Below are positions 490 through 5,879 of a stretch of DNA of 5,879 nt, in pieces (within the stretch, counting starts at the first letter, position 1; each line of letters opens with the position of its first letter). The notes beneath the pieces were generated by a model, which was not told the origin of the DNA, did not search any database, and saw nothing but the letters and a program-made list of their open reading frames with translations. Source of the stretch: Candidatus Helarchaeota ASGARD archaeon Hel_GB_B (GTDB lineage: Archaea; Asgardarchaeota; Lokiarchaeia; Helarchaeales; HEL-GB-B). The stretch covers positions 1 through 5,879 of the forward strand of contig SUPR01000162.1 of NCBI GenBank assembly GCA_005191425.1, given 5' to 3'. The position numbers were made by a program, and so were the translations under genes.

Positions 490-764
490 TATTTAATATT
501 AATCATGCCCACTATTGTCTTCAATGCAAATAAAGTGCCTTCTCTTTTATAGTTAAAACCTGGGTAGGTTAATTAATTTGTATTTTTTAATTCCGATAAA
601 GCGGTAAAGAATTTCCATTATAATCTATTTATTTGGTCGTTAAATTATTTTTTTCTAAATAGTATCCACGTAAAATGTATTCTAGGAATTTCATTACCAC
701 TTATTTTTAACGTAAAAGATTTTAAACATAATTGAAGGGTCTGCTCTGCATAAAATAAGTTAAA

Positions 765-998
765 TCATGGTAATTCTTAGTATGTAAAGTTAGGACAAAT
801 TATAAAAATATTAAAATAGAGATGAAGGTTTACAATTGAGAATTTTAGCCTCTTGATAATAACTATATTTAGAAATTTTGATATATTTCTATTCAATATT
901 CTTTATATCCTTTAGATATATCGACTTTAAGGAATTTTTCCTGATAGTAATTTTCTGAAGAAAAAATGAAATTATTTATAAATTTTTATGGGATAACG
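765..998 (+). repeat. Degenerate non-coding direct repeat, copy A (upstream of the protease gene)
   Basis: 783-840 aligns without gaps to 3827-3884 at 43/58 identity (hand count). The copies share exact TTTACAATTGAG (829-840 / 3873-3884) and exact CAATATTCTTTATATCC (894-910 / 3937-3953) at offsets 65 and 64, plus a further similar block at 969-998 / 4014-4043 (offsets 140 and 141). Outer boundaries are approximate. Confidence 0.75.
894..910. promoter_or_regulatory. Conserved 17-mer with TATA-like core (copy A)
   Basis: CAATATTCTTTATATCC is identical at 3937-3953. It reads TTTATAT on the + strand and GGATATAAAG on the - strand, so orientation is ambiguous. Confidence 0.35.
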
Positions 999-1129: not shown

Positions 1130-2431
1130 ATGAGCGAGGGAATAGTAGAGATAGAGAGTAAAATATTAAGTAGTGCCGACCCATTTAGGTGTGCTATTAG
1201 CTTAATAAAAGAGAAGATTAAAGAATTAGAGGGCTATACGGGTTCGTATTGGGTCGTATATTGGGCAGATGTAGATAATCATTATGCTGGGGACGGAAAT
1301 TTAATTATAAATGAGGACTTAGAGATTTTCAGGGATATGCTGAGGGATGTTAAAGGAGGGACGCTTTTTTTAGATATAACAAGTCCGGGTGGAAAGGTTG
1401 ACGCAGCGGAAGCCATAATTTCATATTTAACATCAAAATTTAAAAGTATAAAAATCGTTGTTCCACATATTGCAAAATCAGCGTCTACTTTATTATGTCT
1501 TCTTGCTCGAGAGATATATATGGGTGATTATTCATTTATTGGTCCAATTAGTCCTCTTGTAGGTAAAGAAAATGAAGATGCAGTCCACAAAATAGAGGAA
1601 TTCAGATATATTGAATCTCTATTTAAAAAAACAGCTTTTGAGTTGTCCAAAATTGTGAGCGAGAAATTGCCTGAAAAGATAAAAAAAGATACTCAAGGTC
1701 CAAATGGGTTAGAAAACAATTTAGATAATATAATTTCAGAAAATATAGCTAATAATAAGGAAAGTATAGAGCAATTTTCCGAATTATTCTCAAATTTAAT
1801 GGCGTCAATTTATATGCCAATATTAAAAATGGAGTATCCATTGTATGAAGCAGAAGAGGCATTGAGAATTATCAGAGAGGTCGGGTTGAAAGCGTTTAAA
1901 TGGTCAAATAGATTTAATAAAGTAATAAATGATGAGGAGCTTACTAAGATTATTGATAATTTGTTAAGAAAAGACGATAGACCAATCAGACATACAAAAT
2001 ATATATCAAAAAAAGAAGCAAAAATTATCGGACTTAATATTATAGACCTTGAAGACCATAAAAATGTGGAGAATAACGTGATTTATATTCAAAACGTATT
2101 ACGAGTATTGAACTCAAATTATAATATTATAAAATTTGTAATAGCAGGTAATGGTCAGTTTAGATTCACTATAGAGAAGAAAATAGGATTCAACGATTCT
2201 ATTAACAAAAATTTTACGGGCAATATTAATCATTTGAAGGCTCAAGAATTTATAAATTACGCGCATACTAGTATAGATAAAACCTTTTCAAGGTTTTTGC
2301 CTTCAATTTCTTCGAGATTAGCGGAAAAAAGTTCTATTAATGATAAAATAACTGATGTTAATAAAATTCAACTCCAAAAAATGATAGAACTATGGGATAA
2401 TGAATATGACGATATCTGGGACGACTTATAA
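1130..2431 (+). CDS. SDH-family Clp-fold serine proteinase (SDH_sah/DUF114-like), divergent, with helical insertion and C-terminal extension
   Basis: 433 aa ORF with family motifs in the expected order: TSPGGKVDAAEAI, IVVPHIAKSAST (nucleophile Ser117, codon 1478-1480), EIYMGDYSFIGPISP (family GPIDP; Asp replaced by Ser141), and RHTKYISKKEAKIIGLNI (His288, codon 1991-1993). Confidence 0.85.
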   Translation: MSEGIVEIESKILSSADPFRCAISLIKEKIKELEGYTGSYWVVYWADVDNHYAGDGNLIINEDLEIFRDMLRDVKGGTLFLDITSPGGKVDAAEAIISYLTSKFKSIKIVVPHIAKSASTLLCLLAREIYMGDYSFIGPISPLVGKENEDAVHKIEEFRYIESLFKKTAFELSKIVSEKLPEKIKKDTQGPNGLENNLDNIISENIANNKESIEQFSELFSNLMASIYMPILKMEYPLYEAEEALRIIREVGLKAFKWSNRFNKVINDEELTKIIDNLLRKDDRPIRHTKYISKKEAKIIGLNIIDLEDHKNVENNVIYIQNVLRVLNSNYNIIKFVIAGNGQFRFTIEKKIGFNDSINKNFTGNINHLKAQEFINYAHTSIDKTFSRFLPSISSRLAEKSSINDKITDVNKIQLQKMIELWDNEYDDIWDDL

Positions 2432-2600: not shown

Positions 2601-2633
2601 GAAAACATATATAAATAAGAAATTAACGAGGTG
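2601..2633 (+). promoter_or_regulatory. Putative archaeal BRE/TATA element and SD-like motif of the wHTH gene
   Basis: Purine-rich GAAAAC followed by TATATAAA (2608-2615), about 25-30 nt upstream of ATG 2640, and GAGGTG at 2628-2633. The TATA spacing would give a near-leaderless transcript, so the two signals may not both be functional. Confidence 0.45.
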
Positions 2634-2639
2634 GTAATA

Positions 2640-3143
2640 ATGGTAGAAGAAGAAATTCAAATCAACAAGATTTTCGATTCAGATTTTAGTGAAAAATATG
2701 ATATAGGGCTGGAGGAATTTATTTTAGTTTTTCTTAGATCATTTGAAAATGATATGATCAAAGGTAAGACGCGATTTCAGAAATTAATATATTTAATAAA
2801 TAAGGAACACAAGATATTTAATGAATTAAATTATTACAGATATTATTATGGGCCATATTCTGATGCTTTAGAAGATGCGCTTAGAAATCTTAGGATAAAT
2901 AGGTTAATAGATGAACGGACCACATATTTTGATGATACGGGTTTAAATTTTCAAATAGATTTAAAATTATCGGAGAAAGGAATTCAAAAAGCTGAGGAAA
3001 TAAAACAAAAATTAGGAGAAAAATTTGGACCTTTGGAAAAAATTATAGAAACTACAATAAAAGAGAATAATTTTCATAGTATGCCTTTAAAAAAACTTCT
3101 TAAAATAGTTTATGAAAAAGCAGGGTATAGTAAAAGGATTTAA
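2640..3143 (+). CDS. YwgA / Panacea (DUF4065, SocA-like) winged-helix protein, candidate antitoxin or regulator
   Basis: Contains IKGKTRFQKLIYL and YYRYYYGPYSDALEDALRNL, matching the G.T..QKL.YL ... Y.YGPYS..L...L..L signature of this wHTH group. ATG 2640 is preferred over the track's GTG 2631 because GAGGTG (2628-2633) is an SD-like motif 6 nt upstream. Confidence 0.78.
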   Translation: MVEEEIQINKIFDSDFSEKYDIGLEEFILVFLRSFENDMIKGKTRFQKLIYLINKEHKIFNELNYYRYYYGPYSDALEDALRNLRINRLIDERTTYFDDTGLNFQIDLKLSEKGIQKAEEIKQKLGEKFGPLEKIIETTIKENNFHSMPLKKLLKIVYEKAGYSKRI

Positions 3144-3722
3144 TGAAAGGTAATTAAATATTTTACAGACGTGTTAATAATTGGAAAAATCTGTGAGAGA
3201 GAAAATAAAACATTAAAGGACTTATTAGATAAAAATTTAGGTGTGAATTTATTCGCCAGAAATTTATAAAAAAGGTTATTATCATCACAAAGAAATATAT
3301 TATTAGAGGACCAGAGAGTAAAAAGTTTTATGGATAAGAATAAGCCATATTTATACGATAAAAAAATAGAATTAATTCAAGATTTGAATAAGGATATTTC
3401 TAATTTTTCTGAAATTACAAATTCGACGGATTTAAACCGGAATTTACCATATATTTTGATAGATATACCAAAAATCAGAAAATTTAAAGATATAGAATTT
3501 GTTATTGCAGATCCGGATTATCCTGAAAGTGAAGAAGTTAGAAGTCTGAAATATGTGGGACGAATATTAAGAAATTTAGACCCGAAATTTGAAATTATCC
3601 CAACTATTGCGTATGTTTTCGTTCAAAATAAAGATAACATGCATTTAATTGAAAAAATAAAGGAAGAGGTAATTGCATTTTTTAGAGATAGGTTCAATAT
3701 ACCTAATTTTTGGAAAAATTAA
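3143..3722 (+). pseudogene. Remnant of a SAMHD1/COG1078-like HD-superfamily dNTP triphosphohydrolase (C-terminal half only; HD domain absent; internal stop)
   Basis: The frame of ORF 3330-3722 extends upstream to 3147 as KVIKYFTDVLIIGKICERENKTLKDLLDKNLGVNLFARNL*KRLLSS, with one TAA at 3267-3269. The (L/F)TD...LKD...RNL(Y/F)K pattern resembles the HD-associated region of SAMHD1-like enzymes, and the later ILIDIPK ... SL...L ... AYVFV fits their C-terminal lobe. No HD catalytic motif was found. ATG 3143 overlaps the upstream TAA but encodes only MKGN*. Confidence 0.65.
3330..3722 (+). CDS. Residual 130 aa ORF (C-terminal lobe of the HD phosphohydrolase remnant); independent expression uncertain
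   Basis: Intact ORF in the track. It is the distal part of the longer interrupted reading frame described above. Confidence 0.4.
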   Translation: MDKNKPYLYDKKIELIQDLNKDISNFSEITNSTDLNRNLPYILIDIPKIRKFKDIEFVIADPDYPESEEVRSLKYVGRILRNLDPKFEIIPTIAYVFVQNKDNMHLIEKIKEEVIAFFRDRFNIPNFWKN

Positions 3723-3806: not shown

Positions 3807-4043
3807 TCATGGGAGGTAGAATTAATTGTAAAGTTTAAGTAAATTAAAGTAATTTTAAGATAACAATGAATATTTACAATTGAGTATCCCAATTTTTTGT
3901 AGTATTTCTATTAAATAATATTTATTAAAGTTTACCCAATATTCTTTATATCCCCAAAAATATGCTTTAGCATTGAAGAGTATTTCTTATTTTGGACCTA
4001 TGAAAGAGGAGTAAAATCATTTAAATATTTTATCGAGTAAACG
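3807..4043 (+). repeat. Degenerate non-coding direct repeat, copy B (upstream of the LRR gene)
   Basis: Colinear partner of 765-998, with the same conserved blocks and near-identical spacing. Confidence 0.75.
3937..3953. promoter_or_regulatory. Conserved 17-mer with TATA-like core (copy B)
   Basis: Identical to 894-910. Confidence 0.35.
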
Positions 4044-4103: not shown

Positions 4104-5879
4104 ATGAGTTTTGATTTTAATGGGGAGCCGATATTGCAAGAGCAATTAGAGGCTTTGAAGGAGTTGGAGGGTGTATTATTAGAGAAGTTAAAGTTATCAG
4201 ATAACTTAAAATATAATAATTCAGTTATTATTCAAGATAATAGGGTAATTAAGGTTAGATGTTGTTGTTCGGAGGATAGTGGTCCGATCAATATTCCGGA
4301 AAGTATTAAGTACCTGAGGGATTTAAGATATTTAGAAGTGGACTTTAGAGGTCATTTAACAAATTTTGAAAGCATTAGATATCTTGAAAATTTGGAAACG
4401 TTGAGGGTAATAAATGCGGACCTTGATATAATTATGGGCACGATTGAGGAGTTGCCCAATTTAGTTAATTTGGCATTAAGTAAAATGAAAATAAAGGAGT
4501 CATTTAACAATATTGTCAGGGTAAAGAAATTAAAGAAAATAGAGTTAATAGATAATGGACTGGAGAAAATTCCAGAAATAATTTTTGAGCTTGAAGGGTT
4601 AGAGGAGTTATCCGTCATATTCAATAAGATCAGGGAGGTCCCCCCAGAAATTTCAAGGTGCAAGAGTTTAAGAAAGTTAAATTTACGAGTAAATAAGATT
4701 AAAGAGATATCTGAAACGATTAAAGGACTAAATAATTTGGAAGAATTGAACTTAAATGGAAATAGAATTGAAAGAGTAAATAAGGCAATCACTGAACTAA
4801 AGAAGTTAAAAGTATTGAACTTAGATTTTAATTTGTTAAAAACATTACCTGAGGAAATCCTGGACATGCGATCACTTGACGAAATTAACGTCAGATATAA
4901 TAAATTAAAAATTGTATATCAACCGGTGCACATTATTCAGCGATATTTGGAGGGTGTGCCCCAAGATTTACCGGAACACGAAAGGCTATTTATTGCGAAA
5001 TTATTGTCGCTGGTCGAGGAAAAATGGGACAAGAAATCATCAGTTGAATTTGTTATAGAAAATGGACACGTTATTAAATTTCAAATTAAAGATTCGACCT
5101 GGAGACCAAAAATTTATGCTTTACCAGAGGAGTTTGAGAAGTTAGAATATTTAAGAAGTTTTAGCGCAAATTCGCCGGGGATCACCGTTCCAATTTTAAA
5201 ATTTCCAGATAATTTATTTAAAGAAATGATGGACGAACTTAAAGAGTTAAACATACCTGATAAGGAAAAGGAATTTATAATATATATTAAGCCGTTTATC
5301 CCTTCATTGAAAATAATAGAAGATGGGAAAAAAGTAGAGTCAAAGAGATACGTTTTAATAAAGGACGGGCACGTCCATGAAATTTACTTCAAAGATCTTT
5401 CAAATTCGCGCTATTTTGAGAGGCACCCATTAATTTGTAATTTAAAATTTCTCAAAACGCTAATTTGGAAGGAAAATAAATTAAAAGAAATCCCGGAAGG
5501 AATTGAAAATTTAAGCACTTTAGAGAAATTGGACCTGACGGAAAATAAACTTAAAAATCTACCGGATTCCATTACAAAACTCCACAGTCTTAAAACCTTA
5601 ATAATTTCAAAAAACCCAATTAAGTCGCTCCCGGAAAACTTCGGGGACTTAAAGGAACTAGAAAAGTTCTATTTTTCAAATACAAATTTGAACAGCCTCC
5701 CAAGTTCATTTAACGACGTGGTATCTTTAAAAGAAATTGAAATGATAGGGGTTTATTTGTTTGAAATTCCAGAAATTTTAATTCAATTAAACCTAAAGGA
5801 ATTCTTGAAATATTCAATACCAGACGCAGAAAAAAAAGCACTTTCCGCGCTGTACATTTTGAGCTACGATGAATATAAT
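4104..5879 (+). CDS. Large modular leucine-rich-repeat protein (3'-truncated by window edge; at least 592 aa)
   Basis: Manual translation from ATG 4104 (in-frame TAG at 4098-4100, AAGGAAG upstream) is open to base 5879: MSFDFNGEPILQEQLEALKELEG...LSYDEYN. It carries many 23-aa LxxLxLxxNxLxxLPxxI repeats. It is absent from the ORF track, presumably because there is no stop codon inside the window. Confidence 0.95.
   Translation, partial: MSFDFNGEPILQEQLEALKELEGVLLEKLKLSDNLKYNNSVIIQDNRVIKVRCCCSEDSGPINIPESIKYLRDLRYLEVDFRGHLTNFESIRYLENLETLRVINADLDIIMGTIEELPNLVNLALSKMKIKESFNNIVRVKKLKKIELIDNGLEKIPEIIFELEGLEELSVIFNKIREVPPEISRCKSLRKLNLRVNKIKEISETIKGLNNLEELNLNGNRIERVNKAITELKKLKVLNLDFNLLKTLPEEILDMRSLDEINVRYNKLKIVYQPVHIIQRYLEGVPQDLPEHERLFIAKLLSLVEEKWDKKSSVEFVIENGHVIKFQIKDSTWRPKIYALPEEFEKLEYLRSFSANSPGITVPILKFPDNLFKEMMDELKELNIPDKEKEFIIYIKPFIPSLKIIEDGKKVESKRYVLIKDGHVHEIYFKDLSNSRYFERHPLICNLKFLKTLIWKENKLKEIPEGIENLSTLEKLDLTENKLKNLPDSITKLHSLKTLIISKNPIKSLPENFGDLKELEKFYFSNTNLNSLPSSFNDVVSLKEIEMIGVYLFEIPEILIQLNLKEFLKYSIPDAEKKALSALYILSYDEYN
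4293..4913 (+). repeat. LRR block 1: nine 23-aa (69 bp) repeats
   Basis: aa 64-270, from IPESIKYLRDLRYLEVDFRGHLT through VPPEISRCKSLRKLNLRVNKIKE to LPEEILDMRSLDEINVRYNKLKI. Confidence 0.85.
5427..5765 (+). repeat. LRR block 2: about five 23-aa repeats
   Basis: aa 442-554, e.g. IPEGIENLSTLEKLDLTENKLKN, LPDSITKLHSLKTLIISKNPIKS, LPENFGDLKELEKFYFSNTNLNS. Confidence 0.85.

Follow-up and report, generated by a model that had tools for sequence, protein, structure and literature searches.

SAMHD1, a dNTP-hydrolysing HD-domain enzyme, is restrained by allosteric nucleotides. In the Clover system, dNTP depletion serves as defence through the dGTPase CloA, which is paired with CloB and restrained by p3diT, a nucleotide signal that an NTase produces (PMC12265719), and among the references of that paper Tal et al. 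(2022) stands for a stand-alone anti-phage dGTPase. On the side of small neutralising proteins, PanA antitoxins neutralise their toxins (PMC8832971), and the C-terminal domain of DarG is described, in a passage of the same paper, as binding and inhibiting its toxin directly. A pairing of PanA with an "HD domain-containing protein" (CDD YdhJ) is already on record there, as predicted toxin cluster pT33/T34, marked as not tested (Kurata et al., 2022; PMC8832971, supplementary file 2).

The locus described here lies in a window, by which we mean the whole stretch of DNA that was analysed, that constitutes an entire 5,879-nt contig of an Asgard MAG of 3.54 Mb (93.7% complete). Positions 2640-3722 of this window are, very probably, the relic of a two-gene module in which a YwgA/DarG-C/Panacea-like wHTH protein was paired with a SAMHD1/EF1143-type HD dNTP triphosphohydrolase. 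As in the catalogued PanA pairs, a small Panacea-type protein and a COG1078-type HD phosphohydrolase would be tightly coupled in such a module, as predicted antitoxin and toxin; the listed pairs, however, are from Firmicutes and have the toxin first, whereas the window copy is from an Asgard archaeon, has the partner first, scores below the cut-off for Panacea and carries an HD gene that is truncated and dead. The locus is a degenerate copy of an already catalogued pair, here in an Asgard host and in the partner-first order. The preliminary description of this DNA had announced an uncharacterised SAMHD1-like module whose intact relatives should be findable, and the relatives were indeed found, but the pairing itself had been seen before, in the Panacea dataset (PMC8832971).

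Other known systems resemble one half of the locus or the other. DarTG (7YK3) is similar in that DarG-C is the top solved-structure, PADLOC and NCBIfam match of the wHTH protein, but the window has neither a macrodomain nor DarT, and the partner is an HD hydrolase. B. subtilis YwgA (P71046, E 5e-4) is the top Swiss-Prot structural match, and ywgA adjoins ywfO in Bacillus, presumably as a pair comparable to the tight HD-then-wHTH arrangements that we find in L033, L041, L047, G312 and G335; YwgA is nevertheless only 18% identical in sequence to the wHTH protein, and the gene order in the window is reversed. Clover offers a likeness of principle, an HD dNTPase effector held by a dedicated partner gene as is proposed for a window-type pair, although CloA is Dgt-type and the restraint proposed for the intact pair would be a protein clamp.

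The wHTH gene and the frames behind it

The small protein carries the family motifs GKTRFQKLIYL and YYYGPYS. Its score against SocA_Panacea (PF13274) in Pfam is 20.4 bits (E 1e-3), under the gathering cut-off of 25.7, which its homologue P0004 likewise does not reach (21.6 bits). DarG models match it better, with E values of 4.8e-8 in PADLOC and 2.8e-6 in NCBIfam, and both do so via the C-terminal, toxin-binding part of DarG. The AF2 model of the protein, built with 18 homologues in the alignment, has a pLDDT of 90; among solved structures it is matched best by DarG-C in 7yk3 (E 8e-4, TM 0.56-0.59), behind which the MarR/PadR regulators rank, and among Swiss-Prot models YwgA is followed by DarG (1.4e-3). 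Among the ESM Atlas neighbours there are clusters that are 100% PF13274 (TM 0.64-0.70). The protein is fairly called YwgA/DarG-C/Panacea-like at the superfamily level, as had been proposed from the letters alone, with a Pfam score that stays below the threshold for membership. Its polymorphism (0 N : 2 S) was rejected as evidence of selection, considering that six of the seven comparison loci had been retrieved by exact protein identity. The window has no RNA genes according to scans for Rfam families and tRNAs.

The coordinates of the features are collected in Table 1. The wHTH stop belongs to a TAATG (3141-3145) with AAGGA ahead of it at 3134-3138, the ATG at 3143 encodes only MKGN*, and the frame that begins at 3147 contains one TAA before continuing into the ORF that ends at 3722, 191 codons altogether. 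These were the statements of the preliminary description about the sequence, and all are correct on re-reading; absent from it was the fact that the remnant frame is the wHTH frame as well, with TAA TGA between the two. The spacer of 61 codons ahead of the ORF has at most one stop in just 0.6% of spacer shuffles, so that the openness of this frame, in sequence of 29% GC, is unusual and beyond what chance would readily give. The nonsense codon itself sits in an A/T run, TTTATAAAAAA (3263-3273), that resembles an archaeal TATA box.

Table 1. Features of the wHTH-HD locus, in window coordinates
Feature	Position	Strand	Description
GAGGTGG Shine-Dalgarno	2628-2634	+	ATG of the wHTH gene 5 nt further on
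wHTH ORF	2640..3143	+	167 aa, intact; YwgA / DarG-C-terminal / Panacea-like superfamily
Predicted deletion junction	3141..3158	+	wHTH stop TAA, in-frame TGA and vestigial ATG; from comparison with the intact L012 gene
Upstream HD remnant	3147..3329	+	untranslatable; corresponds to P0005 residues 306-366; R-x-L-[YF]-K motif with nonsense codon
TAA nonsense codon	3267..3269	+	at Tyr346 (TAC) of P0005; codon-by-codon comparison with the intact L012 gene
ORF, 130 codons	3330..3722	+	corresponds to P0005 residues 367-494, the extreme C-terminal part of the HD protein; 42% identity

Farther upstream lies an SDH-type ClpP-like protease gene, which was considered as a part of the module and rejected, as it is not beside the wHTH gene in L011, L012 or L016. 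Across haplotypes this gene shows 11 N : 1 S and, in one strain, a TGA at codon 172, a sign that the neighbourhood is decaying.

Origin of the downstream frame

An exhaustive HMMER search (phmmer, 1.84 billion representative proteins) yielded a sole real relative of the remnant, the 496-residue protein P0005, residues 309-494 of which align with remnant residues 4-190 (E 4.2e-38). When the TAA is read through, 3147-3719 is 39% identical over 187 residues, with one gap, to the C-terminal 186 residues of P0005. This protein has the Pfam domains HD and HD_assoc_2 and keeps the H..HD..D residues, and its matches in the PDB are Aquifex 2hek (1e-38), E. faecalis EF1143 (2o6i, 8e-34) and SAMHD1 (3e-21); to the PADLOC dGTPase model it is matched weakly (5.8e-7) and in the HD motif region only. 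Since P0005 is nearer to the enzymes of bacteria (E values of 1e-38 to 1e-30) than it is to SAMHD1, there is no special link here between Asgard archaea and eukaryotes. The resemblance to SAMHD1, EF1143 (2O6I) and 2HEK that P0005 shows in its domains and metal-site residues extends to the remnant in the retained R-x-L-[YF]-K motif, but the window copy is without the entire catalytic domain, and there is no SAM domain.

When searched directly against Pfam, NCBIfam, PADLOC and PDB sequences, neither the remnant nor the 130-codon ORF gave a relevant hit, and the remnant directly matched neither HD_assoc, HD_assoc_2 nor any PDB chain. The same C-terminal region of P0005, searched alone, likewise has no direct match, and a word-index search with the 130-codon ORF retrieved this species' own copies only. 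In the AF2 model of P0005, the HD domain is confident and residues 300-496 are poor (pLDDT 30-60). Thus, of the profile evidence to which the preliminary description had looked for its SAMHD1-like segment, a direct HD_assoc match in 3147-3719 did not appear, and the link to HD_assoc_2 and SAMHD1 holds transitively, via P0005. Profile alignment places the R-x-L-[YF]-K motif of the remnant family over SAMHD1 YRNLFK, where the window reads R-N-L-stop-K with the TAA at the Phe; the SAMHD1 segment that the preliminary description had quoted occurs letter for letter when the profile is aligned to PDB 5ao0_A, just where it had been placed. By its homology to P0005, then, the 191-codon frame represents the final third of a predicted SAMHD1/EF1143-type HD phosphohydrolase gene, which upholds the original suggestion.

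How much of the gene is missing can be read from the same comparison. Homology to the HD gene restarts by codon 5 of the frame (3159), BLASTP residue 5 corresponding to residue 310 of P0005, and the 61 codons before the ORF's ATG, taken alone, match P0005 residues 310-366 (E 3e-9) colinearly with the downstream part. Relative to the intact homologue, the HD gene has lost about 305 N-terminal codons (about 0.9 kb) together with the original spacer. The preliminary description was right that the HD domain had been deleted, but its "several hundred bp" must be corrected to about 0.9 kb; its Tyr-to-TAA change agrees with the codon comparison, which has a conserved Tyr, encoded by TAC, in the intact homologue. 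The region that carries H79, H124-D125 and D213/D216/D221 in P0005 is missing not only in the window but throughout the assembled genome; a search of that genome (93.7% complete) with P0005 found matches only at residues 292-494, and HD_assoc_2 had no match in it. As a candidate member of the SAMHD1/EF1143-type family (COG1078), the window copy shows the C-terminal homology and lacks both the catalytic residues and a full-length frame. Judged from its coding content, the window locus can make no dNTPase, and none is predicted elsewhere in the assembled genome.

We propose that a deletion of about 0.9 kb took the spacer and the first 305 or so codons of the HD gene, all metal-binding and catalytic residues included; that the 191 codons left behind then gained, or had before, a TAC/TAT-to-TAA change within the R-x-L-[YF]-K motif; and that the partner wHTH gene stayed whole, as an orphan. 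Pairs of this kind usually decay by loss of the enzyme with the neutraliser retained, and a lineage that loses the enzyme could retain a neutraliser that does no harm.

Intact pairs in relatives and their possible function

Three JGI contigs encode P0005, each with a 170-aa gene whose end lies 26 nt ahead of the HD gene; at locus L012 the small gene occupies 9462-9974 and the HD gene 10001-11491. The product of this neighbouring gene is 48% identical to the window wHTH protein (E 5e-41). Of 400 genomes from the phylum, 95 are matched by a profile of the small protein, and among the best 30 small-protein loci an HD gene is directly attached in three more Asgard genomes. The wHTH gene precedes the HD gene by 11 nt in one (G062), and the HD gene comes first in the other two, overlapping the wHTH gene by 10 nt (G312) and 7 nt (G335). 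With these and the P0005 loci, the intact wHTH-HD pairs that the preliminary description expected in Asgard genomes have been located. A scan of species-representative genomes further revealed tight HD-first pairs in a Fischerbacteria MAG, an uncultured bacterium and an alphaproteobacterium (L033, L041 and L047), and a looser bacterial case of HD plus wHTH in a Nanopelagicales MAG (L034).

The association has clear exceptions. In a genome of the same genus (G001), the small gene is followed by a GNAT gene 317 nt downstream, and there is no trace of HD; a further close wHTH homologue has no HD neighbour either (L011; P0004, 60% identical to the window wHTH protein); and in G032 an LmuB-like ATPase gene comes after the small gene, again with no HD neighbour. 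Such close homologues (G001, L011, G032) indicate that the small protein is not tied to the dNTPase. Among 17 more distant wHTH loci, another gene begins no more than about 15 nt past the end of the wHTH gene in ten (in some cases overlapping it) and stops immediately ahead of it in four more, the partners being HD, PIF1-like helicase, TrmB, LmuB-like ATPase and, for the most part, unannotated proteins. The tight two-gene operons with varied partners by which the Panacea superfamily is recognised are therefore found among the relatives, and in the window the partner is broken. Viewed from the enzyme's side, such an HD gene is present in 16 of 60 relatives, with a wHTH partner adjoining none of the 12 HD loci fetched, and the HD proteins of other relatives match P0005 at residues 30-300 only. 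The preliminary description had staked its reading on wHTH homologues being linked to HD genes; this linkage is real and recurrent, but non-obligatory.

What, then, would an intact pair do? By analogy with the antitoxins of the DarG and PanA type, the small protein would bind and restrain the predicted dNTPase, and its release would lead to dNTP depletion. We give this clamp an even chance.

About as likely as the clamp, and on its own a possibility falling just short of even, is that the intact module serves housekeeping control of the dNTP pool, with a YwfO-type enzyme and the wHTH protein as its transcriptional regulator or subunit, in which case the window would record the loss of a dispensable metabolic gene. 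This alternative concerns the function of the intact pair and leaves the anatomy of the window as it stands. YwfO-type enzymes may be housekeeping, and a YwfO homologue is kept in a minimal Mycoplasma genome (PMC4993169), which weakens a toxin reading. The L012 pair, moreover, lies outside any defence island amid metabolic genes (CCG, NUDIX, FAA hydrolase, OsmC), and the winged-helix fold of the partner is common to MarR/PadR regulators. The top structural matches of the partner, however, are protein-binding antitoxin domains and not DNA-bound regulators, and its relatives stand in tight operons with many unrelated partners, a Lamassu-like ATPase among them. The patchy spread of the enzyme, together with the missing partner at the 12 HD loci fetched from relatives, also argues against a housekeeping role, as does the setting of the window copy, a variable region with PIN-MazE, transposase and RAMP genes. 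A search of the literature found no paper on the function of YwgA, nor any on Asgard archaea and SAMHD1.

The truncated copy in its population and what it means

The arrangement is by no means confined to one assembly. Loci L005-L010 (from JGI, ENA and NCBI assemblies) and L053 (JGI) have the same arrangement at >99% identity, without indels and with the TAA present, and Logan contigs from three hydrothermal-vent runs of different studies extend across the junction or the stop: those of runs X1 and X3 cross the junction without indels, and the TAA is found in those of X1, X2 and X3; across these independent assemblies and runs, 3141-3329 is alike base for base, save for one SNP at 3308. The check for an assembly error at the junction or the stop, which the preliminary description had called for, comes out in favour of the sequence, with seven further contigs and the contigs of the three runs in agreement. 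Within the population sampled, the truncation has gone to fixation. A metagenome scan with the remnant alignment turned up a single additional truncated copy, L053, and no intact relative any closer.

The relic that we favour carries only one stop and no frameshift over its 191 codons, in a genome of 29% GC, and polymorphism in the ORF 3330-3722 amounts to 5 N : 6 S (pN/pS 0.19), against an expectation of about 82% non-synonymous changes under neutrality (P 0.008). On these grounds the fragment may be young or still constrained, and not simply dead. The SNPs are clustered, six of them falling within 3439-3458 and another three within 3533-3554, a pattern resembling two recombination tracts, so that the N:S count may reflect selection that preceded the truncation.

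Constraint would also be expected if the 130-codon ORF had been kept as a stand-alone C-lobe protein, started at an internal Met downstream of the TATA-like run and perhaps serving the wHTH protein as a partner to bind or as a decoy. We regard this as unlikely. Its ATG (3330) does align with the conserved internal Met367 of P0005, the ORF is unbroken in all eight haplotype sources, the C-terminal 190 or so residues are specific to the wHTH-linked subfamily, and the deficit of non-synonymous changes is in its favour; the SNPs that make up this deficit, however, are not independent. Unlike the wHTH gene, moreover, the ORF has no strong Shine-Dalgarno, no confident fold is predicted for it (Atlas pLDDT 0.38, in keeping with the poorly modelled C-terminal region of P0005), and the 1.84 billion representative proteins contain no homologous stand-alone protein beyond the species' own copies. 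Less likely still is a more elaborate scheme in which the wHTH protein and the 130-residue fragment would cooperate, the fragment, as a decoy or co-factor, supplying the surface by which the lost dNTPase had docked and the wHTH protein guarding against incoming intact modules (anti-addiction), while the intact Asgard pairs would be protein-clamped nucleotide-depletion immunity.

A chance opening of the frame 3147-3329, or a misassembled junction, with the ORF 3330-3722 an unrelated orphan, has next to no probability: neither the ORF nor the read-through directly matches a Pfam, NCBIfam or PADLOC family or a PDB chain, but this reading is ruled out by the homology to P0005, colinear even in the upstream codons alone, and by the agreement of independent contigs and runs across 3141-3329.

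Taken as the relic of a wHTH-dNTPase module, the locus is by itself a pseudogene of little importance, and what it offers is a lead to the intact archaeal copies, namely P0005 with its 170-aa neighbour and the pairs in G062, G312 and G335. On the origin of the eukaryotic SAMHD1 it is uninformative, since the enzyme is nearer to bacterial homologues. Asgard archaea carry a SAMHD1-like predicted dNTPase with a DarG-C/Panacea-like partner, in both gene orders, and such pairs extend from Bacillus (YwfO-YwgA) to candidate phyla; the pair is gained and lost quickly. If the small protein is indeed a clamp on the dNTPase, it would represent a third way of restraining nucleotide-depleting immunity, beside the allosteric nucleotides of SAMHD1 and the p3diT of Clover.

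Repeats and genes around the wHTH-remnant pair

The intact winged-helix (wHTH) gene, the C-terminal remnant of the SAMHD1-like HD dNTPase gene and the upstream SDH-type ClpP-like protease gene together form a block enclosed by two direct repeats, one lying 5′ of the protease gene and the other 5′ of the leucine-rich repeat (LRR) gene, with the exact boxes TTTACAATTGAG and CAATATTCTTTATATCC common to both. A search of the genome found no third long copy. Duplication of a promoter or operator region could account for these repeats; alternatively, they could be a recombination footprint left by insertion of a cassette. In its complete contig, the LRR gene encodes a product of 1,509 aa with LRRs throughout, and the surrounding 158-kb contig also carries RAMP, PIN-MazE and DDE transposase genes; the region is therefore variable and defence-flavoured.

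Features of the locus and of related loci
Feature	Location	Orientation	Remarks
SDH-type ClpP-like protease gene	window 1130-2431; L005 (JGI contig, near-identical strain) 8491-9792		433 aa
Direct-repeat pair	window 783-953 and 3827-3996	colinear	~170 nt each; ~70% identity; 3,044 nt spacing
LRR gene	window 4104-5879; L005 11465-15994		3′ of remnant
NUDIX-family gene	L012 (intact wHTH and HD dNTPase pair) 11704-12438	- strand	convergent with intact HD dNTPase gene
wHTH homologue locus	L036 2210-5360		G032 contig 2, Promethearchaeota MAG
wHTH gene, then GNAT gene	L016 497-2001	both same strand	G001 (same genus)

Variation among near-identical strains

Polymorphisms in the protease gene comprise 11 non-synonymous versus 1 synonymous change, and in the JGI strain the gene is broken at codon 172 (TTG to TGA); it looks to be under relaxed selection. 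Comparison of the near-identical strains further revealed short, dense SNP tracts at window 727-783 (nine within 57 nt), 3439-3458 (six within 20 nt) and 3533-3554 (three within 22 nt). Since the SNPs bunch in this manner, the tracts suggest gene-conversion patches whose donor was a more divergent allele, which was not recovered.

Partners and forms of the wHTH family

At the locus with the intact pair, the NUDIX-family gene that converges on the HD dNTPase gene may encode a second nucleotide-pool enzyme. Across Asgard family f13, the wHTH domain lies within ~320-aa ORFs in 29 of 31 genomes (e.g., loci L061, L067 and L071), some with a second, weak wHTH match, meaning that the family also occurs in fused or duplicated form. 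In the Promethearchaeota MAG, the homologue is flanked by an overlapping 234-aa unannotated gene and a 662-aa LmuB-like SMC/AAA ATPase gene, a possible Lamassu-like defence operon having a Panacea-like component. The closest genomic relative, G001, retains the wHTH gene with no trace of an HD gene; a 227-aa GNAT acetyltransferase gene follows 317 nt later, and the wHTH partner may have been swapped in this genome.
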